Position numbers and translations under genes: made by a program
Notes under the pieces: generated by a model
Database searches by the model: none
Seen by the model: only the letters and a program-made list of their open reading frames with translations
Told to the model about the DNA's origin: nothing
Part shown: positions 1 to 6,624 of the stretch, piece after piece
Position numbering within the stretch: the stretch's first letter is position 1
Layout of the letters: every line of letters starts with the position of its first letter
IMG/VR virus record: IMGVR_UViG_3300008807_000535
Coordinates: 1 to 6,624 of that record
Reading direction: 5' to 3' (one strand)
DNA: 6,624 bases
Origin: a virus

Positions 1-99
1 GCCAGCAAGATTGAAAGCAAGAACTTAGGAGGATTTCCCCGTGGCGCCCGAATACATGGCTGTGGAGGCTTGGATTCTGTTGGGCGCGGTATGCGTCGC
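1..99. repeat. Terminal redundancy copy 1, identical to 6526-6624; marks circular closure of a 6,525-bp genome
   Basis: I compared bases 1-99 with 6526-6624 base by base and found them identical. The reading frame of the rep gene continues across the junction. Confidence 0.95.
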
Positions 100-324
100 T
101 GGGTCAATTGGCCTGCGTATGTGCAGGGCAATGCTGCATGCACAGACCGCTTTAGACCTCAAAAGGGCGGCGGCTTTGTCAATGCTGAAACCGGGGAGTT
201 CCTGCCGTCTGAGTTCGCACCAACGGGCGGCGGTTTTCGCTCTTTTATCCGAGTGCGGCGAACCCCGCGCAAGCTCGACCCGTCCGGGCCGTTCTCGTGG
301 CTCCCAGCGTCAAGCGCTCCCTGA
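1..324 (+). CDS. gII: Rolling-circle replication initiator (gII/RstA-like), C-terminal part. It continues from 5980-6525 on the circle, giving 289 aa in total.
   Basis: Frame 1 is open from base 1 to the TGA at 322-324. It is contiguous on the circle with the ORF carrying the HUH (HYH) and YLMKY motifs at 6355-6525. It reads ASKIESKNLGGFPRGARIHGCGGL... and ends ...SWLPASSAP. Confidence 0.85.
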   Translation, partial: ASKIESKNLGGFPRGARIHGCGGLDSVGRGMRRWVNWPAYVQGNAACTDRFRPQKGGGFVNAETGEFLPSEFAPTGGGFRSFIRVRRTPRKLDPSGPFSWLPASSAP

Positions 325-333
325 GCGTTTGCC

Positions 334-348
334 GGTGTGAATCACACC
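334..348 (+). other. Small hairpin (GGTGTG-aat-CACACC) between rep and the coat gene; possible weak attenuator
   Basis: A 6-bp perfect stem with a 3-nt loop lies 10 nt after the rep stop and is followed by ATTTC. There is no strong T-tract, so terminator function is uncertain. Confidence 0.25.
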
Positions 349-377
349 ATTTCATCAACCATTGAAAGGAAAAAACC

Positions 378-578
378 ATGTTCCAAAACGTCAAGACCCG
401 CATTGCTCTGATCCCCGGCGCCGCCCTGGCTGCTGCTGCACCTGCTTTTGCCGCTGTGCCCACTGAGGTGACCACGGCGCTGGGCGACATGAAAGCTGAC
501 GCGATGACCGTCGCCGGTCTGGTGCTTGTTGCCATCATCGCTGTGGCTGCCTTCAAGTTCATGCGCAAGGGCTTCTAA
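378..578 (+). CDS. gVIII: Major coat protein (pVIII-like), 66-aa precursor
   Basis: The layout is classic for an inovirus coat protein. It has a signal peptide ending AFA|A, an acidic mature N-terminus (E, D, D), a hydrophobic core VAGLVLVAIIAVAAF and a basic C-terminus KFMRKGF. An AAGGA Shine-Dalgarno sits about 8 nt upstream of the ATG, and the gene lies just after rep. Confidence 0.8.
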   Translation: MFQNVKTRIALIPGAALAAAAPAFAAVPTEVTTALGDMKADAMTVAGLVLVAIIAVAAFKFMRKGF

Positions 579-580
579 GC

Positions 581-922
581 ATGTTCCAGGTTGGCTCTGC
601 TTGCTACAGCACGGCGGCGGCGGCCAACGCGGCCACGGCGTCGGCGCAATCCGGCGCCGTTGTCACATCAGGCGGCACGGCGCGAGTCGTGACCGTTACG
701 GCGGTGGATGGTGCATCCATCACCTACACCTACCACGCTTTGGACGGCTCCACCGTCGTTCAGACTGTGCAGCACACCCCGCAGCCCTGCGGCCTGCTCA
801 CTGCATCGGACGCTGTTGATATTGGGTGGCTCATTGGGGGCGCTTGGCTCGCTGTGTACGCCATCATGTTTTTGGCGCGTGCCCTCGCGCATGAGGATCA
901 ATCCCCTTATGGCAACACCTGA
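581..922 (+). CDS. Hypothetical membrane-anchored protein, possibly a minor virion protein (113 aa)
   Basis: The ATG lies 2 nt after the coat-gene stop. Third-position GC is high. An Ala/Thr/Ser-rich N-terminal part is followed by a C-terminal TM segment IGWLIGGAWLAVYAIMFLA. It sits in the structural module between the coat gene and the pIII-like gene. Confidence 0.6.
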   Translation: MFQVGSACYSTAAAANAATASAQSGAVVTSGGTARVVTVTAVDGASITYTYHALDGSTVVQTVQHTPQPCGLLTASDAVDIGWLIGGAWLAVYAIMFLARALAHEDQSPYGNT

Positions 923-980
923 ATTTTTCGCGGTGCTGGTCGGCATCCTGGGTTCAATATGGCTCATCGTCTCGCGCTGA
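909..980 (+). CDS. Candidate tiny hydrophobic ORF (23 aa, MATPEFFAVLVGILGSIWLIVSR), comparable in size and character to pVII/pIX
   Basis: The ATG at 909 opens a frame bridging the end of the 113-aa ORF and the start of the pIII-like gene. The product is almost entirely one TM helix. I saw no Shine-Dalgarno, and it is too short to assess statistically. Confidence 0.2.
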   Translation: MATPEFFAVLVGILGSIWLIVSR

Positions 981-2236
981 TTCTCGGGCTGCTCGTTTTC
1001 GCCCAGCAGGCCCATGCGGGCTATGCTTACCCCGTTGACCCGCCTGGATTCCAGCGTGGCGGGCCTTGGGGTTCCGGCTTCGGCTATGCCCCAGCGGCCA
1101 ACGATCAGACATTCGGGCGCGTCGTTCACACGCCCAACGGCCCCACGGCGCCTGTGCCTGGGAAACCTACAACGCTCCCCGCGTCCTACCGCTTCGCTTC
1201 TAACGCACCGAAGTTCGCGTCGCGCATCATCTTCATGCATCCGGGCGTGCGAACCGCTGCGGGCGTGCTCGCATGGCTCGGCATGGCCGGTGTGATTTGG
1301 GATGCTGTCAATGGGGTGTGGCGCCAGGAAAAAAGCCTGACGGAATCCGGCGAGGGTGGCGAATGGACATTTAGCGACGGCACCGTAACAAGCAACCCAC
1401 AGGGCCATTGCGCAATGTGGGGGGCCAGTTTCACATCAAGCGGCAATCAAGGCTGGTGCATGACGGCTGGCGGCATCGTTGCCTCGGCCCACCGAGACGG
1501 CCCCCAGCAATGCCCCGTAGGCTGGACGTCAACGCCCGCCGGTTGCCTTTCGCCAGCTCTCACGCAGCCACAATTCGAGGACGCACTGAACCCGCATCCA
1601 ATGCCGTCAACGGTGCCCCTTGAGCTGCCCAAACCCTCGCCGCTCCCAATTGAGCCCAATCCCTGGATCAATCCAGAACCCGGCCCCAATCCACAAACCC
1701 GGCCCCGGTTCGTGCCAAACGGCGACCCCGTCAAAAACCCCAATTACGACCCGAACGCGGAGCCTTCGCCGGACAATCAGCCCTACAAGCAGCCGGGGAC
1801 GCGCATCGTGCCGTCGCCCACTGAAAAAGACCCGTTCCGGTTGGACATTCAGCCCGTGGACAAGCCTACGCCTACGCCTGACCCGCAGCCGGATCAGGAC
1901 GAGGGTCCGGGGCAAGATCCCAATGTCAAGCCCCAGGAAAACCCCGGCTTGTGCGATCAGTACCCGGACATTGTTGCGTGCGCCAAACTCGGCGAAGCCC
2001 CCGAAGCAAAACCTCTCGAGAACATCGACAAGACCCTCGAAATCAAAAAAGAGCAGGGTTGGGGGCCAGAGAATGGAACATGCCCCGCACCCAAAACTGC
2101 CACGGTGGCGGGTGTCGCCCTGGAAATGTCATTTCAGCCCTTGTGCGACTTCGCCACAGGCATTCGGCCCGTCATTATTGGGCTTGCCTGGATCAGTGCC
2201 GTGATGGGCTTTCTCGGGCTCTCCCGAAAGGATTGA
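959..2236 (+). CDS. gIII: Adsorption/minor coat protein (pIII-like), 425 aa
   Basis: It has a signal peptide MAHRLALILGLLVFAQQAHA|GY and Cys-containing N-terminal domains. A long Pro/Asn/Asp-rich linker covers roughly 1590-1950. The C-terminal membrane anchor is IRPVIIGLAWISAVMGFLGL followed by SRKD. Its position before the pVI-like and Zot genes is as in Ff (gIII) and CTXphi (orfU). Confidence 0.75.
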   Translation: MAHRLALILGLLVFAQQAHAGYAYPVDPPGFQRGGPWGSGFGYAPAANDQTFGRVVHTPNGPTAPVPGKPTTLPASYRFASNAPKFASRIIFMHPGVRTAAGVLAWLGMAGVIWDAVNGVWRQEKSLTESGEGGEWTFSDGTVTSNPQGHCAMWGASFTSSGNQGWCMTAGGIVASAHRDGPQQCPVGWTSTPAGCLSPALTQPQFEDALNPHPMPSTVPLELPKPSPLPIEPNPWINPEPGPNPQTRPRFVPNGDPVKNPNYDPNAEPSPDNQPYKQPGTRIVPSPTEKDPFRLDIQPVDKPTPTPDPQPDQDEGPGQDPNVKPQENPGLCDQYPDIVACAKLGEAPEAKPLENIDKTLEIKKEQGWGPENGTCPAPKTATVAGVALEMSFQPLCDFATGIRPVIIGLAWISAVMGFLGLSRKD

Positions 2237-2237
2237 T

Positions 2238-2528
2238 ATGGACACCATTGCCAATTGGTTGGCTAGCATCTCCTGGCCTATCGTGTCGCGCGTGCTCGCC
2301 GCTGCCGGGGTGGGCACCGTCACCTACAAAGGCGCGGATGTGGCATTGCAGAGTGCGTACCAGGGCGCCAAAACGGCATTCCTGGGCCTTGCCGGGGAAA
2401 TCCTGCAGCTCCTGGCCATGGCGGGCTTTTTCGATGCGATGGCTATCGCATCGGGCGGCATTATGAGCGGCCTTGCCTGGATGGTGATGAAGCGCTTTGC
2501 GCTCCAAACGACCGGGGCGCCTGCATGA
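2238..2528 (+). CDS. gVI: Small hydrophobic minor coat protein (pVI/Ace-like), 96 aa
   Basis: AAAGGA lies 6 nt upstream of the ATG. The protein has multiple hydrophobic segments. Its size and position between the pIII-like gene and zot match the Ace/pVI slot. Its stop overlaps the zot start (ATGA). Confidence 0.7.
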   Translation: MDTIANWLASISWPIVSRVLAAAGVGTVTYKGADVALQSAYQGAKTAFLGLAGEILQLLAMAGFFDAMAIASGGIMSGLAWMVMKRFALQTTGAPA

Positions 2529-3688
2529 TCACGCTCATCACCGGCGCCCCTGGTGCGGGCAAAACTGCGGCGCTCGTGGACATGCTGTCAACCCTTGGCC
2601 GGGATCGGCCCTTGTTCGTCCACGGCATTCCTGAGCTCAAGGTGCCCCATGTCACCCTTGACCAGCCCGAAACATGGCCCGATGCCGTCCCCGATGGGGC
2701 GGTGGTCGTCATTGACGAAGTTCAAACCGTGTGGCGGCCTGCTGGCCCTGGTCAACGTGTGCCGGATCACATTGCAAAGCTCGAAACCCACAGGCACAGG
2801 GGCCTGGACTTCTACATCATCACCCAGGGCCCAAATCTTGTGCATTCCAACGTGCGCGCCCTGGTGGGTCGTCATGTGCACCTGCGCGATGTGGGGTTCC
2901 TCGGGCGCTGGTGGTACGAGTGGCCGGAGACTGCCGACAACTGCCGGACTGGTTGGAAAACTGCCCCAATCAAAAAGCGTTACAAGCTGCCAAAAAATGT
3001 GTTCGGCACCTACAAAAGCGCATCCGTGCATGTCAAGCCTGTACGGTCGTTCCCCGTCGTGCTTTTGGTGCTGCTCTGTGCCGTTCTCGGTGCTCTGTTT
3101 TTGGCCTGGAAAAGCTACGGCACCTTGGCCGAAAAAATGGCCGGGGGTGTGCCTGCTGTTGTCAACAATTCGGCGCCCGTCATGTCTGGCGTAATTTCGC
3201 CGCCAGCCGTGACACCGGCCCAGGCGCCCACTGTTCAAGGCCCAGCAGATGAGCGCGTCGATTTCATGCCCCGCTTGTCCGATCGCCCTTGGACTGCTCC
3301 GGCCTACGATCAACTGCGTGTTGTTGTTCGCCTGCCGTCCATTGCGGGGGGCATCTGCAAAGGGTCGCAATGTCTGTGTTTCACGGATCACGGCGAGCGC
3401 CTCGATATTGGCTCAAAAGCCTGTGCGCAGTGGATCGCGTCGCGTCCTTTTGACCCTTACAGCGTGCCGGTCAAATCGTCGGCTTCCGCTTCCGCCGATC
3501 GCGCCGAAAAGGCCGCGGATCGTACTGAATCTGGCGAACGTCGAAGCGATCAGCGTCCCTCCGAGACCGTAGAAGTTCCCATGCCTTCCGGCGTCTCGAA
3601 CCCACGCGGCGAGCTAATGCCACGAGTGCCAATCCTGCCAAAATCAGAGCGAGCACAAGCCCTGGCCAATTCTGAAAAAATGTCTTGA
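2525..3688 (+). CDS. gI: Zot-family / pI morphogenesis ATPase, 387 aa
   Basis: The N-terminal Walker A is MITLITGAPGAGKT (GAPGAGKT at 2543-2566) and the Walker B-like motif is VVVIDEVQ (2702-2725). A central TM segment FPVVLLVLLCAVLGALFLAW is followed by a Cys-containing periplasmic domain. The last roughly 75 aa (from about 3461) are a charged, Ser/Arg/Glu-rich tail with falling third-position GC. Confidence 0.9.
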   Translation: MITLITGAPGAGKTAALVDMLSTLGRDRPLFVHGIPELKVPHVTLDQPETWPDAVPDGAVVVIDEVQTVWRPAGPGQRVPDHIAKLETHRHRGLDFYIITQGPNLVHSNVRALVGRHVHLRDVGFLGRWWYEWPETADNCRTGWKTAPIKKRYKLPKNVFGTYKSASVHVKPVRSFPVVLLVLLCAVLGALFLAWKSYGTLAEKMAGGVPAVVNNSAPVMSGVISPPAVTPAQAPTVQGPADERVDFMPRLSDRPWTAPAYDQLRVVVRLPSIAGGICKGSQCLCFTDHGERLDIGSKACAQWIASRPFDPYSVPVKSSASASADRAEKAADRTESGERRSDQRPSETVEVPMPSGVSNPRGELMPRVPILPKSERAQALANSEKMS

Positions 3689-3701
3689 TGTTCTCCAGCA
3701 T
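3471..3701 (-). CDS. Candidate small membrane protein (76 aa), fully antisense to the 3' tail of zot
   Basis: The ATG is at 3701, 9 nt after the orf80 stop on the same strand. The N-terminus MLENIKTFFQNWPGLVLALILAGLALVALARRVGSRRRK is one TM helix with a positive-inside flank. The remainder is Arg-rich and could be an antisense artefact. I saw no clear Shine-Dalgarno. Confidence 0.3.
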   Translation of the reverse strand: MLENIKTFFQNWPGLVLALILAGLALVALARRVGSRRRKAWELLRSRRDADRFDVRQIQYDPRPFRRDRRKRKPTI

Positions 3702-3710
3702 TCGCGCAGT

Positions 3711-3953
3711 TTAGCCCCACAGCAACACACAGGCGTTTTTCACGCGCAGCGCCAGGGCGCGGGCGCGTTTTGCGATCGCAGCAGCCCACGCCGGAACCGC
3801 TGGCCGCATCATCGGCTGCACCTTCCCGGCGTTCATTAGCCATGACCACCACGCGGCGCGTGAGTTGGCTTCATCAATCCCTGAAAAATCAAGCTCAAGC
3901 TGCCGGATCAATCCATCTGCGTGCTTCCGGTAATTCGCTGCGATCGCCATCAT
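3711..3953 (-). CDS. Hypothetical protein (80 aa), accessory/regulatory module, function unknown
   Basis: Third-position GC is roughly 70% in this frame against roughly 50% in the opposing + frame ORF. AAGGGG lies just upstream of the double ATG. It is on the same strand as the repressor. I recognised no motif. Confidence 0.55.
   Translation of the reverse strand: MMAIAANYRKHADGLIRQLELDFSGIDEANSRAAWWSWLMNAGKVQPMMRPAVPAWAAAIAKRARALALRVKNACVLLWG
3743..3771 (+). terminator. Candidate intrinsic terminator of the long + strand operon
   Basis: The sequence is CGCGCagcgccagggcgcggGCGCG followed by TTTT. The outer 5-bp GC stem pairs 3743-3747 with 3763-3767, and an inner GC stem is also possible. 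It lies 55 nt downstream of the zot stop, inside orf80 on the opposite strand. Confidence 0.4.
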
Positions 3954-3994
3954 TGACCCCTTAAATGCTGCCCTCTCGCTCGGGTCTCCTCGCT

Positions 3995-4028
3995 CCCCCG
4001 CCAGCAGGGCGGGGGCGGGGGGGGTGGG
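3995..4028 (+). other. GC hairpin (CCCCCGCC-agcag-GGCGGGGG, 3995-4015) overlapping a four-tract G-quadruplex motif (4007-4028)
   Basis: The 8-bp perfect stem was read directly. GGGcGGGGGcGGGGGGGGtGGG has four G-tracts with 1-nt loops, and it is on the strand that carries the structural genes. Confidence 0.6.
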
Positions 4029-4046
4029 TTACCACGCACAGCATGA

Positions 4047-4162
4047 AAAAAGGGGCCTTTGACCCCTTTTCGCGCCTCCGTTCCGCCCCCCCCAAGTGCC
4101 CCTCGCTCGCCATGGGGTCTTGGGGGGGGTGGAAAGCGAAAAGGGGTCAAAGGGCACTTTTT
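4047..4162 (+). repeat. Long imperfect inverted repeat forming a hairpin of about 116 nt; candidate packaging signal and/or minus-strand origin
   Basis: The arm AAAAAGGGGCCTTTGACCCCTTTTCGC (4047-4073) pairs with GCGAAAAGGGGTCAAAGGGCACTTTTT (4136-4162). The arm TTCCGCCCCCCCCAAG..CCCC (4081-4102) pairs with GGGGTCTTGGGGGGGGTGGAA (4114-4135). The apical loop is 11 nt (4103-4113), with roughly 45 paired positions and a few mismatches or bulges. It lies in noncoding DNA. Confidence 0.65.
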
Positions 4163-4372
4163 GGGACTAGCACGCGCCCGTAAATGGCGTGCCACAAAGC
4201 GCAGCGACTGGCGCGACATTTTCAGCGTGCGGGTTCGTGGCGCAGACTCCGCGCTCCCGGTATTGGGGGAGGCCAACAGGCCGGGGGCAGCGCCCCGCGT
4301 TAGGGATCGTTAGTTGCCCCTGGCAATTGAGACGGGCGGGCGGCACGGTGGCTGCACATAGCGAATGATCGG

Positions 4373-4580
4373 CCCCGCAGAACAAGTGCGAATCCCCGCA
4401 GGACAAGTGCCGCGCCCCGAGGCCGACTGCGCGGCCCCGAGGGCCAGCCAAAGCGATGCAAGCGAAGCGCAGCGCGGCGGCTGGGCCGACTGCCGCGCCC
4501 CGAGGCCGACTGCGCGGCCCCGCAGGACAAGTGAGGCGCCCCGCAGGACAAGTGCCGAACCCCGAGCGATAGCGCGGGCG
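4373..4580. repeat. Array of about ten phased 21-bp (20-21 bp) iteron-like direct repeats, each beginning CCCCG
   Basis: Units start at 4373, 4394, 4415, 4435, 4498, 4518, 4539 and 4560, and a 63-bp degenerate centre equals three further units. The A type CCCCGCAG(G/A)ACAAGTG occurs four times. The B type CCCCGAGGCCGACTGCGCGG occurs twice exactly, plus variants. There is a 32-bp perfect direct repeat at 4408-4439 and 4491-4522. Confidence 0.85.
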
Positions 4581-4583
4581 CTG

Positions 4584-4599
4584 GGCTGGCTGGCTGGCT
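4584..4599. repeat. (GGCT)x4 tetranucleotide microrepeat abutting the repressor stop codon
   Basis: GGCTGGCTGGCTGGCT was read directly. Its last base overlaps the complement of the repressor TGA stop (4599-4601). Confidence 0.8.
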
Positions 4600-5048
4600 C
4601 AACCGTAGGCCAGAGCCCGGTTCGTGCGTAGCACGAAAACGCCCAATCGGCTCTTGATCTGGCGCAGCATCCAATAGATACGATGTATAGAAAGGTTAAC
4701 CGGCGTGTCACTTTTCGCTATCGTTTCCATAGTGGAAATCGAGTCGTCTTTGTAGGAAATAACCAACATCGCCGCCACGCCAGCGGCTAGCGCCTTTCCC
4801 AAAATGTTACGCAGGGTCGATTCCCTGCGCGTCCCCCTGGCGCCCTCGATGATCGCCGCAATGGCGGCCTCCCTAGCATCGTCCCCGGCAATGTCTGCCA
4901 GCTCTGCCGCTGTGGCAGGTGATATGGCCCGTTTCCCGCTTCGCATAAGCGATATGTTCGGGCGCGCAATACCCATTCGGTCGGCTAGCTGCTGGTCACC
5001 CCCGCACACTTCCGCCGCCTTGTCAATAAGCATTTGTACGTATTGCAT
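4599..5048 (-). CDS. XRE/Cro-CI-type helix-turn-helix transcriptional repressor (149 aa)
   Basis: The N-terminal segment QQLADRMGIARPNISLMRSGKRAIS is a typical HTH_XRE signature. The gene diverges from the gV operon across palindromic operators. A GGAG Shine-Dalgarno lies 6 nt upstream of the ATG. The C-terminal half contains a hydrophobic stretch ALAAGVAAMLVISY and is encoded by visibly less GC-rich DNA. Confidence 0.8.
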   Translation of the reverse strand: MQYVQMLIDKAAEVCGGDQQLADRMGIARPNISLMRSGKRAISPATAAELADIAGDDAREAAIAAIIEGARGTRRESTLRNILGKALAAGVAAMLVISYKDDSISTMETIAKSDTPVNLSIHRIYWMLRQIKSRLGVFVLRTNRALAYG

Positions 5049-5064
5049 GTATCACTCCTGATAC
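5049..5064. promoter_or_regulatory. Operator O1: palindrome GTATCA-ctcc-TGATAC
   Basis: It has perfect 6-bp inverted arms with a 4-bp spacer and directly abuts the repressor ATG. On the minus strand the spacer reads GGAG, which is the repressor Shine-Dalgarno. Confidence 0.65.
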
Positions 5065-5080
5065 TTGAGACTCTGCACCC

Positions 5081-5096
5081 GTATCACCTTTGATAC
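5081..5096. promoter_or_regulatory. Operator O2: palindrome GTATCA-cctt-TGATAC
   Basis: Its arms are identical to those of O1, 32 bp centre to centre (about three helical turns). It ends 17 nt upstream of the gV ATG. A -35-like TTGAGA (5065-5070) lies between O1 and O2. A -35-like TTGACG for the minus strand is the complement of 5097-5102. The -10 elements are not clear. Confidence 0.65.
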
Positions 5097-5113
5097 GTCA
5101 ATCGGAGTCCACC

Positions 5114-5422
5114 ATGATCAAAGTCTCGGTAACGTCAACCGAAATCCGCAATCAAAGCGGCAACGTGAAGGCCACCGGCAAGCCCTACAGCCTCAACTTC
5201 CAGACGGTATGGTTTCACACCTTCGACCGTTCCGGCAAGCCCAACCCTTACCCTGAGAAAGTCGAGATTATTCTCGAAAAGAACGAACAGGGTGCTCCGC
5301 TGTTCTGGCCTGCCGGTGAATACACCCTGGCGCCGGAATCCATCTACGTCAACCGGAACGGCGATCTGGCGATTTCACCCCGCCTCGTGGCCCTGAAACC
5401 CAAAGCAGCCGCTGCGGCTTGA
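5114..5422 (+). CDS. gV: ssDNA-binding protein (gene V protein-like), 102 aa
   Basis: There is colinear similarity to Ff gVp as I recall it: MIKVSV against MIKVEI, GKPYSLNFQ against GKPYSLNEQ, YPEKVEIILE against YPVLVKITLD, and a C-terminal RLVALKPK against RLRLVPAK. GGAG lies 6 nt upstream of the ATG at 5114. The TTG at 5090 from the ORF track is unlikely to be the start. Confidence 0.88.
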   Translation: MIKVSVTSTEIRNQSGNVKATGKPYSLNFQTVWFHTFDRSGKPNPYPEKVEIILEKNEQGAPLFWPAGEYTLAPESIYVNRNGDLAISPRLVALKPKAAAAA

Positions 5423-5427
5423 TCGCC

Positions 5428-5637
5428 ATGGAATCCGCATTCCACGCGGCCCGGATGGTCGCAGCGCATGACGCGCTGCAATCCATCTTGGCGGAATTCA
5501 ACCAGGACGCGGAACCCGGACACGCTGCCGCATCCGTGTCTGCTCGGTTCAAGCTCGACGCCGCAGACACTCCGGGCGGCCTGGATTTGGTGTTTTTTGA
5601 CGCTTCCGGCGTCATGCTGGCCGGTGAGGGCATATGA
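5428..5637 (+). CDS. Hypothetical small acidic protein (69 aa)
   Basis: Third-position GC is high. The ATG lies 5 nt after the gV stop, and an alternative TTG at 5419 overlaps that stop. Its own stop overlaps the next ATG (ATGA at 5634-5637). Confidence 0.55.
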   Translation: MESAFHAARMVAAHDALQSILAEFNQDAEPGHAAASVSARFKLDAADTPGGLDLVFFDASGVMLAGEGI

Positions 5638-5792
5638 CCCGCGTCATGCCATCCCCCCGCCTCGCAGGCATGTTCAGCCACCCATGCGGCGCATGGGTGA
5701 GCCTGTACCGCTTCAACAGTGGTTATGGCTGGTTCCGGCCCCTCGCCAGTGCTACGCGCACCGGCGTGCTGACGTCTCAAAGGTCGAATTGA
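5634..5792 (+). CDS. Candidate small ORF (52 aa, MTRVMPSPRLAGMFSHPCGAWVSLYRFNSGYGWFRPLASATRTGVLTSQRSN)
   Basis: It falls below the ORF-track length cutoff. It starts in an ATGA overlap with the upstream ORF and ends in a TGATG overlap with the next one. Third-position GC is about 75%. The competing frame-2 reading (part of 5468-5980) cannot be excluded. Confidence 0.35.
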   Translation: MTRVMPSPRLAGMFSHPCGAWVSLYRFNSGYGWFRPLASATRTGVLTSQRSN

Positions 5793-5980
5793 TGCGGGCG
5801 CCTGAATTCCGGGCCGTCTGGCCCAATCAATCCGCGGCCTTCAACGAGCGCCGTTTTTCCTGCCCGGTTCAGTTCCAGGCTTACCTGGACGCTGTCCGGC
5901 GTCATGCCGTCGCCAACCGTTATGCGCTGTCGTTCACCTGGAACGGCCCTGCGCATGTTGAGATTGTGAGGGCCGGGTGA
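5792..5980 (+). CDS. Hypothetical small protein (62 aa, MRAPEFRAVWPNQ...VEIVRAG)
   Basis: This is the distal, protein-like part of track ORF 5468-5980. The ATG at 5792 overlaps the preceding stop, and its own TGA overlaps the rep ATG (TGATG at 5978-5982). An upstream in-frame ATG near 5684 is an alternative start. Confidence 0.5.
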   Translation: MRAPEFRAVWPNQSAAFNERRFSCPVQFQAYLDAVRRHAVANRYALSFTWNGPAHVEIVRAG

Positions 5981-6624
5981 TGGCGTGGGCGGTGGATACC
6001 GGCGTTGCAGGGGCGCGCAGCGCCCCTGGGCTTGTCTCAGTATCAACAACTTGCACGACCGTGCCAACGGTCGTTGCTTGGGCTCAAAACGTTATCCAAA
6101 TTGACCCCGATGTTCAGCGCGTTACCCGCCTTCGTAAGTCCCTCGGCATCGCTGCCAAAGCGTTGCACAACCTTGGGCCTGTGAATCAACGGATTTGGAT
6201 GCAGACCCTCACCTATCGCGGCGATAACGGCGACTGGAAACCCGAGCATATTTCCCGATACCTCGACGCGTTGCGCCGTTGGCACTACAACAAGACCGGC
6301 ACGAAAACACTCCGTTATGCCTGGGTCGCTGAGCTCCAGCAGCGCGGCGTGATTCACTATCACGTTGTGGTCTGGCTCGCTGCTGGCCTCGTCCCCCCCA
6401 AACCTGATACCTGCTGGCGTCGTGTTGATCGTCGCGGCCTCGTGCATTACGAGCCCCCCATGTGGCCCCACGGCATGAGTAATCGCCTGTTGTCCCATGC
6501 CCCCGTCGCGTACCTGATGAAGTACGCCAGCAAGATTGAAAGCAAGAACTTAGGAGGATTTCCCCGTGGCGCCCGAATACATGGCTGTGGAGGCTTGGAT
6601 TCTGTTGGGCGCGGTATGCGTCGC
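5980..6624 (+). CDS. gII: Rolling-circle replication initiator, N-terminal part. It runs off the window end; the true continuation is 1-324, and 6526-6624 duplicates 1-99.
   Basis: The frame is open with no stop to the window end. Motif 1 is MQTLTY (6199-6216). The HUH motif is IHYHVVVWL, with HYH at 6355-6363. The two-tyrosine active site YLMKY (6511-6525) resembles the YxxKY of phiX174 protein A-type HUH initiators. The start is uncertain: the ATG at 5980 is coupled to the upstream stop, and the GTG at 6061 is an alternative. Confidence 0.85.
   Translation, partial: MAWAVDTGVAGARSAPGLVSVSTTCTTVPTVVAWAQNVIQIDPDVQRVTRLRKSLGIAAKALHNLGPVNQRIWMQTLTYRGDNGDWKPEHISRYLDALRRWHYNKTGTKTLRYAWVAELQQRGVIHYHVVVWLAAGLVPPKPDTCWRRVDRRGLVHYEPPMWPHGMSNRLLSHAPVAYLMKYASKIESKNLGGFPRGARIHGCGGLDSVGRGMRR
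6008..6028 (+). other. Perfect 9-bp GC hairpin CAGGGGCGC-gca-GCGCCCCTG
   Basis: Read directly. It lies within the first 50 nt of the annotated rep ORF. Confidence 0.8.
6053..6077 (+). other. Hairpin GCACGACCGT-gcca-ACGGTCGTTGC (8 bp perfect, plus 2 bp after a one-base bulge)
   Basis: Read directly. It is immediately preceded by CAACTTG (6047-6053). It lies 25 nt downstream of the first hairpin. Confidence 0.75.
6526..6624. repeat. Terminal redundancy copy 2, identical to 1-99
   Basis: Exact 99/99 identity with the window start. Confidence 0.95.

Follow-up and report, generated by a model that had tools for sequence, protein, structure and literature searches.

What is the role of a block of phased direct repeats in the genome of a filamentous phage (inovirus)? 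The repeats lie at 4373-4599 of IMG/VR virus record IMGVR_UViG_3300008807_000535, positions 1 to 6,624 of which were analysed and are referred to here as the window; this stretch of 6,624 nucleotides (nt) represents a circular genome of 6525 nt, with bases 1-99 identical to bases 6526-6624. An earlier note on this DNA had described ten CCCCG-initiated units and had interpreted them as a protein-binding array, for Rep, the XRE repressor, the product of orf80 or a host factor. Comparison of homologues showed the array to be one imperfect 'ladder' hairpin of approximately 276 nt (4327-4602), predicted to form in the viral (+) strand. The chances are about even that the cassette containing this hairpin is a host-dependent, modular origin for the complementary (minus) strand, a function inferred from comparative evidence.

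Much of the earlier description of the array was upheld. On the + strand, CCCCG units start at 4373, 4394, 4415, 4435, 4498, 4518, 4539, and 4560, with spacings of 21, 21, 20, 63, 20, 21, and 21 nt. In 5000 dinucleotide-preserving shuffles of the 227-nt block, CCCCG was present 1.7 times on average and six times at most, against the eight observed, and there was never more than one gap of 20 or 21 nt, against six. The two unit types that had been proposed, A (CCCCGCAGGACAAGTG) and B (CCCCGAGGCCGACTG), are both present, A in four copies (one with a single mismatch) and B in two copies plus two that are degenerate. The 32-nt perfect repeat (4408-4439 and 4491-4522, 83 base pairs (bp) apart) is exact and extendable in neither direction, and the same units are reported by Tandem Repeats Finder and by a separate repeat search. 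No A or B cores were found elsewhere in the genome; they are confined to the array and are nowhere near any promoter. The block is non-coding, as had been claimed: coding potential was considered and rejected, since the alternation of 20- and 21-nt units breaks every reading frame, and the open reading frames (ORFs) at 4300-4674 (−), 4310-4711 (−), and 4365-4631 (+) are by-products of the repeats. Three points of the description have to be revised. Eight clear units are counted rather than ten, the supposedly degenerate 63-bp centre is a covarying stem-loop (4441-4487) and not three decayed units, and the element, which is confirmed as such, is larger than was thought, with the hairpin extending over 4327-4602 and the conserved cassette over approximately 4271-4645.

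Public collections were scanned with the A unit and conserved flanking motifs, and 16 distinct versions of the whole region were identified. The carriers, designated by L numbers, are IMG/VR records (L009, L010, which has two different copies, L013, L015, L019, L022, L053, L066, and L068), metagenome contigs (L094, L099, L104, and L105), and prophages (L083 and L088 of Paracidovorax valerianellae DSM 16619 and L087 of Comamonas granuli, the last being identical to L009). Among the relatives, the P. valerianellae prophage L083/L030 is closest to the window, and between the two the array region is the best-conserved DNA, at 78.7 % identity compared with 68-76 % for the genes. This conservation, together with recurrence in 16 distinct versions, indicates selection and supports the earlier view that the block is functional. 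Paracidovorax and Comamonas are the only identifiable hosts, both members of the Comamonadaceae, and this host family is the sole common denominator identifiable among the carriers. Neither the whole window nor the cassette has a match among INPHARED phages or PLSDB plasmids by megablast or blastn, and the closest named phages by Zot are of the Ralstonia RSS1 type, at 40 % identity. A pattern scan with GGCTCMAC...AGAGCCCG returned only chance matches among the matches listed; a periodic k-mer scan and a rigid single-antidiagonal search of Zot relatives, which was too strict, had no informative outcome.

Some carriers have more than one cassette. The genome of P. valerianellae DSM 16619 harbours two inovirus prophages (L083 and L088) whose Rep families are unrelated and whose cassettes differ in type, being A/B in one and C/D in the other. 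Likewise, L010 (copies at approximately 245-640 and 7394-7795) and L066 each have two non-identical cassettes per contig, approximately 7.15-7.9 kb apart, which suggests tandem related prophages rather than assembly redundancy.

The comparisons show how the two halves of the array are related. In L010a, L053, L009, and L099, exact stems of at least 6 bp fall on a single antidiagonal, and therefore the arms are equal in length; the stems in the window are shorter. The outer stem, the strands of which stand just after the motif GAGACGG and just after the last unit, is 16 bp long in L010a and L099 and 12 bp in L053, and the central stem is perfect over 17-18 bp in L010a and L053. In both of these stems the sequence is wholly different between phages and complementarity is kept. 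The 7-bp stems, or rungs, consist of each 5-nt spacer with its flanking G and C. RNAalifold recovers this ladder fold from an alignment of four divergent sequences including the window (A2), in which there are 55 pairs with 91.7 % of cells paired, compared with 28-41 % when partners are slid by one to three columns, and 21 pairs with changes on both sides, compared with one to six in the slid controls; none of 500 shuffles matches the observed pairing values. A second, independent alignment, of six sequences with four units in each arm, has the same helices, and there the basal stem TTGAG/CTCAA is replaced by TGGAG/CTCCA (L010, L066, and L104).

From the outside inwards, the helices of the window begin with the basal and outer stem, in which the 5′ strand at 4327-4348 (TTGAG followed by CGGGCGGGCGGCACGG) and the 3′ strand at 4581-4602, including (GGCT)x4 at 4584-4599 and CTCAA, form 19 pairs, four of them G·T. 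In rung 1, GCCGCGC (4409-4415) pairs with GCGCGGC (4512-4518); four of the seven pairs are compensatory in A2, and variants of the rung are GCCGCAC/GTGCGGC in L083 and GCAGCAC/GTGCTGC in L010b. Next are the B cores, at 4416-4428 on the left and 4499-4511 on the right, where GGCC at 4421-4424 can pair with GGCC at 4504-4507, flanked by tandem G·A, the third helix of RNAalifold. Rung 0 is GCGCGGC (4429-4435) with GCCGCGC (4492-4498), with 96.4 % of cells paired and two compensatory pairs. The central stem-loop (4441-4487; helix 4441-4463/4467-4487) has 18 pairs, nine of which are changed on both sides, and its apex, GCGAAGC at 4462-4468, is GCGNAGC among the homologues, where N may be A, C, T, or G and nothing else varies.

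Among the helix cells there are 14 G·T and one A·C, and therefore the + strand is the folding strand. Inoviruses package the strand coding for Zot, the + strand, and the array shares its strand with Zot at all loci in which a Zot ORF was detected. Such pairs are G·U-compatible, and covariation on the + strand would also suit a structured RNA of this strand, either a small RNA or a 3′ untranslated region. This is very improbable, as Rfam contains no family match (there is only sub-threshold microRNA noise on the hairpin at 4060-4150), no sigma-70-like promoter was found on the + strand over 3900-5089, the GCGNAGC apex is stable as DNA and far weaker as RNA (PMC13037366), and the packaged strand is itself already single-stranded DNA (ssDNA).

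Several features of the array follow from the ladder: its 20-21-nt period, its CCCC...TG unit ends, the equal unit counts of its arms, and the mirror-like order of units that nevertheless share one orientation. The conserved CCCC...TG ends provide the outer pairs of each rung, and the order is mirror-like because each left-arm unit stands opposite the right-arm unit of the same number. The earlier note had reported this order without explaining it; left and right halves are the opposed arms of a hairpin with covarying stems. What faces what depends on the unit type. B (GAGGCCGA, a quasi-palindrome read directly from the sequence) and D (GCAC..GTGC, likewise quasi-palindromic) have facing copies that can pair, D with D over 10 bp in L068; C and D units are mutual partial complements and are always opposite each other; A faces A unpaired, alone among the unit types. 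By inspection, no register gives Watson-Crick pairs between opposed A cores. A coupling of A-core identity across the arms, as in dimer symmetry, was not supported, the A variants of L010b being uniform within each arm and unmatched across arms. Local hairpins, in which each spacer pairs with its neighbour round one core, fit the window but fail in L083, L053, and L022, where only pairing across the centre is maintained.

Arrays recur across related phages with varying unit number. The changes are symmetrical, with two units in each arm in L105, three in the window, and four in L010 and L022. In L013 (reverse strand, approximately 4343-4660) the entire central stem-loop is absent, as it would be after a deletion from one direct B repeat to the other (in the window, the 32-bp perfect repeat), and the remaining array is still symmetric.

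Gene content was compared by all-against-all ORF searches, tblastn, and Pfam. An HUH Rep of family REP_ORF2-G2P (PF23343) is present in the window, L013, L015, L019, L022, and L083, and a Rep_trans protein (PF02486) in L009, L010, L053, L066, and L068. The unit types are not sorted by Rep family; for example, L053, which has Rep_trans, has A and B units like those of the window. This bears on the suggestion that the units are duplex Rep iterons at the plus-strand (rolling-circle) origin. The array does look like iterons, the Ff plus origin is in the same intergenic region, and phased direct repeats of approximately 17-22 bp are present; in the iterons of plasmids F, P1, R6K, and RK2 and of the lambda ori, direct repeats of approximately 20 bp likewise recur at two helical turns. 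However, those iterons co-vary with a cognate initiator, act as duplex, and stand beside an AT-rich unwinding element, whereas identical unit types here occur with both HUH-type and Rep_trans-type phages, no co-variation with one cognate initiator family is seen, the units are the arms of a hairpin, and no AT-rich or nick-site-like element is present within the array, the G+C content of which is approximately 71 %. Rep iterons are therefore highly unlikely.

The other proposed binders fare no better. The XRE repressor is not supported, as array units are unlike its GTATCA-N4-TGATAC operators, and L015 and L019, both complete circular genomes, have no repressor gene and retain intact arrays. 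Nor is orf80 supported, since no homologue was detected by ORF comparison or tblastn in array-bearing L009, where approximately 200 nt separate the end of Zot from the start of the cassette. A duplex array in the replicative form (RF), with direct repeats spaced by two helical turns as cooperative sites on one face for a host factor, the repressor, or orf80, might serve in copy control, partition, or immunity or as a sink, and would explain why the units are phased at 20-21 bp and directly oriented. The A cores are also invariant though unpaired, which implies sequence-specific recognition. Nevertheless such an array is distinctly unlikely: no candidate phage binder was found in all carriers, repressor, orf80, and Rep family each being variable, the operators of the repressor have another, palindromic sequence, no promoter lies near the A and B cores, and the covarying inverted stems, the asymmetry of G·T and A·C, and the symmetric gain and loss of units are left unexplained. 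Of the idea of a protein-binding array, the duplex Rep version is not supported, and binding to the unpaired A cores, on ssDNA or by a factor that is probably of the host, is possible.

The integration module, too, varies independently of the cassette. In L009, L053, and L068 a serine recombinase gene (Resolvase and HTH_7 domains; called by Pfam in L009 and by ORF clustering in L053 and L068) lies directly 3′ of the cassette, replacing the dif-like attP that in the window is 73 nt downstream of the giant hairpin. An accessory site for XerCD at this attP, or a non-B structure of the RF (a cruciform, a − strand G-quadruplex, or a + strand i-motif from the eight C4/G4 tracts), might be suspected from the proximity of attP and from eight CCCC tracts at 21-nt intervals. 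Either is scarcely probable, since phages with the serine recombinase and no dif-like site keep the cassette, loops of 16-17 nt are unfavourable for a quadruplex or i-motif, and C1 and C3 of each tract are explained by rung pairing. CTX-phi provides a precedent for a functional + strand hairpin near Xer-type integration in an integrating inovirus, its folded attP; there, however, the stem itself is the XerCD site, whereas in the window the crossover core (4675-4689) is outside the hairpin.

The only phage protein families found in all carriers are those of two virion/assembly proteins, Zot and the gVI-like minor coat protein. The Zot proteins of the array-bearing phages are only approximately 30 % identical to that of the window, and despite this the A core is identical; cassette motifs were found in none of 29 contigs with Zot 46-71 % identical to that of the window. 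The cassette passes between phages without regard to their Rep, repressor, and morphogenesis genes, and it follows the host family.

A further line of evidence comes from short motifs that form mini-hairpins, GCGNAGC or GCGNNAGC, which are present at the apex, in the terminal unit, and in the loop of the downstream hairpin h5. They are on the + strand only, both in the cassette of the window and in 11 of the 16 versions. The same motifs are found at the primase-dependent complementary-strand origins of phages G4, St-1, and alpha3 and at ssiA, the origin version being GCGAAAGC in G4 and GCGTTAGC in St-1 and alpha3, and mini-hairpin DNA is also found at the N4 hairpin promoters (PMC13037366). 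Their binding of single-stranded DNA-binding protein (SSB) is poor, and their stability, extraordinary in DNA, is much lower in RNA (PMC13037366).

The reading of the cassette as a minus-strand origin is suggested because its viral-strand structure is kept by compensation, it is independent of the initiator, it is exchanged as a cassette, and it is correlated with the host, which are the defining traits of such origins and of the single-strand origins (sso) of rolling-circle plasmids. Compensatory change maintaining a structured viral strand is seen in A2, in the second alignment, and in h5; strand specificity is seen at sequence level in the G·T to A·C ratio, in the strand shared with Zot, and in the + strand motifs; and initiator independence and modularity are seen in the two Rep families and two integration systems with which the cassette is associated. 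In the fold, the rungs, formed by the 5-nt spacers with the adjoining last G and first C, pair across the central stem-loop, and the unit cores between them are internal loops in which B/B and C/D partly self-pair and A/A is unpaired. It is proposed that upon infection, and again when a round of rolling-circle synthesis ends, SSB would leave the hairpins free, and that they would be the landing site at which host primase or RNA polymerase makes a primer, from which ssDNA would be converted into the RF; the unpaired, conserved A cores would make the sequence-specific contacts.

The ladder of phased repeats is an unusual architecture for an element of a known kind, an ssDNA-replicon hairpin that acts as a single-strand origin or in morphogenesis, found here in Comamonadaceae inoviruses that form an uncharacterised group. 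The oric of G4, St-1, and alpha3 and ssiA of RSF1010 resemble the cassette in being non-coding and viral-strand-specific, with several hairpins and GCGNAGC or GCGNNAGC motifs, and the St-1 and alpha3 motif is the one found in the terminal unit of most relatives. At these origins priming is by enzymes of the host and does not depend on the rolling-circle initiator, and priming in the cassette is predicted by analogy. G4-type origins are, however, only approximately 140 nt long, with three simple hairpins and no periodic units, whereas the cassette has a ladder of approximately 276 nt with six to eight repeated 20-21-nt units and invariant unpaired cores. Similarly, ssoA, ssoU, ssoT, and ssoW and the Ff minus origin (hairpins B and C) are large imperfect hairpins of the displaced strand with conserved unpaired blocks. 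Plasmid single-strand origins are orientation-specific, limit host range, form large folds, and are shuffled as cassettes among replicons (PMC5703833); this shuffling, in which the replicons differ in their Rep proteins, is paralleled by the occurrence of the cassette with both Rep families. The sso elements differ in being approximately 160 nt long, carried by Gram-positive plasmids, and primed by RNA polymerase, and neither they nor the Ff origin have phased repeats or sequence similarity to the cassette.

The main rival to a minus origin is a packaging (morphogenetic) signal, in which the hairpin would stay duplex in the gV-coated strand and mark the end read by pVII, pIX, and the Zot-like pI for extrusion. 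Hairpin, + strand specificity, and covariation fit this as well as they fit an origin, and the packaging signal of f1 (60 bp) is likewise an imperfect, orientation-specific viral-strand hairpin of the large intergenic region, as in Ff phages (f1/M13) generally. In addition, the co-resident prophages L083 and L088 of one P. valerianellae strain share the cassette, and cross-packaging would be possible. Nevertheless, packaging is considered unlikely. The cassette is decoupled from the morphogenesis genes, given the approximately 30 % identity of Zot among carriers and the absence of motifs from all 29 contigs with closer Zot, a weak test in that pVII and pIX were not identified; and mini-hairpin motifs are linked to priming sites and not to packaging signals. 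A separate, nearly perfect 98-nt hairpin at 4056-4153, with perfect stems of 18 and 11 bp, C8/G8 runs, and a TTTTT that follows, stands where a packaging signal would be expected. It is better suited than the ladder to the role of the Ff signal, which is 60-78 nt long and has no repeats. Positional analogues of 127-150 nt are present in L013, L015, L083, and L104, and the 98-nt hairpin is a candidate packaging signal and/or terminator. Just 5′ of it is a G-rich run, GGGCGGGGGCGGGGGGGGTGGG, at 4007-4030.

Several observations weigh against the cassette being a minus origin of the proposed form. The model does not explain the A cores, since known minus origins (Ff, G4, and ssoA) have no 21-nt periodic units. 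The outer rungs beside the A units have approximately five of seven positions paired, no better than non-cognate pairs, so that in the window a large internal loop contains all four A cores; the outer stem of the window requires its four G·T pairs; and the minimum free energy of the window as DNA is modest relative to shuffles (+ strand, z=−1.4; − strand, z=+0.3). The comparisons drew on 16 sequences from few lineages, and the members of each alignment are related. The upstream hairpins h1-h3 rest on inspection, as RNAalifold does not return them from a MAFFT alignment in which L068-type sequences are misaligned. Finally, judging from the Rep families, the plus-strand origin probably lies outside the cassette.

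A more specific version of the minus-origin proposal takes the A cores into account. In these 'single-stranded iterons', which would be an origin architecture not described before, the covarying rungs would hold the invariant, unpaired 16-nt A/A cores face to face, and a host priming factor that binds ssDNA (primase, RNA polymerase, or a loader of the primosome) would land on them in a sequence-specific way. Efficiency would be tuned by the presence of two to four rung pairs, and the whole would be a portable, Rep-independent host-range module of Comamonadaceae inoviruses. This is tentative and rather doubtful as it stands.

The remaining parts of the cassette, all on the + strand, flank the helices described above. 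Upstream are h1, GGCC-AACA-GGCC (4271-4282), with the compensatory homologue variants GGTC-GGA-GACC and GGGC-GATA-GCCC; h2, GGGGC-AGC-GCCCC (4284-4296); an invariant single-stranded segment, GGGATCGTTAGT (4303-4314); and h3, TTGCC-CCT-GGCAA (4314-4326), the stem of which is TCGG/CCGA, TCAC/GTGA, or TCGC/GCGA in homologues. Inside the outer stem is an unpaired lead-in, CACATAGCGAATGATCGG (4349-4372; CACAAAGCGAMTG in relatives), which is opposite the terminal unit and is kept in 13 of the 16 versions; no covarying partner for it was found. The left-arm A units (4373-4408, with A′ at 4373-4393 and A at 4394-4414) and the right-arm A units (4519-4559, with units at 4518-4538 and 4539-4559) have unpaired cores, those on the left lying in the large internal loop between rungs with five or six of seven positions paired. 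The terminal unit, CCCCGAGCGATAGCG (4560-4580), includes a mini-hairpin motif, GCGATAGC (4566-4573), in place of which most relatives have GCGTTAGC. Downstream of the hairpin, 4603-4645 consists of the invariant AGAGCCCGGT, then h5, TTCGTGC-GTA-GCACGAA (4621-4637), the loop of which is the mini-hairpin GCGTAGC (4626-4632), and then CGCCC. Four stem pairs of h5 have changes on both sides in 4-7 of 12 sequences, and loops of the GNA or GNNA type recur in homologues.

The genome around the cassette has genes that identify an inovirus, for coat protein B (378-578), a gIII-like protein (959-2236), a gVI-like DUF2523 protein (2238-2528), Zot/pI (2525-3688), orf80 (3711-3953, minus strand), the XRE repressor (4599-5048, minus strand), a gV-type ssDNA-binding protein (5090-5422), and the HUH Rep of family PF23343, which spans the circle junction (5977-6525 then 1-324). 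The Rep ORF has a GTG start and encodes 290 amino acids, compared with 348-371 and an N-terminal extension in the homologues of L015, L019, and L022; another start, or a frameshift relative to the overlapping ORF at 5468-5980, are both possible. The gV gene, listed with a TTG start at 5090, probably begins at the ATG near 5114. It diverges from the repressor gene, and the interval between the two has a pair of GTATCA-N4-TGATAC palindromes (5049-5064 and 5081-5096), which are probable operators of the repressor and have no relation to the units of the array. The crossover core of the dif-like attP, TAGATACGATGTATA (4675-4689), is inside the 3′ end of the repressor ORF. The L083/L030 prophage of P. 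valerianellae is linearised exactly at the dif-like core, and one of its junctions reads GATACGATGTATATTATGTAAAAT, resembling a bacterial dif site; L010 has a similar core in inverted orientation.

In filamentous phages other than Ff, the cis signals for minus-strand origin and packaging are essentially unmapped, even though prophages of this kind are widespread and affect bacterial behaviour. What is now available is a delimited and comparatively supported ssDNA element with testable pairs, natural length variants, a deletion of the centre, and a host association. It also carries a caution for annotation, in that phased direct repeats of an ssDNA genome may be the arms of a hairpin rather than duplex iterons. 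If the cassette is truly a minus origin, it would be a part for phagemids and ssDNA vectors for the Comamonadaceae, and it would mean that inoviruses swap host-specific lagging-strand cassettes separately from their initiators, as rolling-circle plasmids do.

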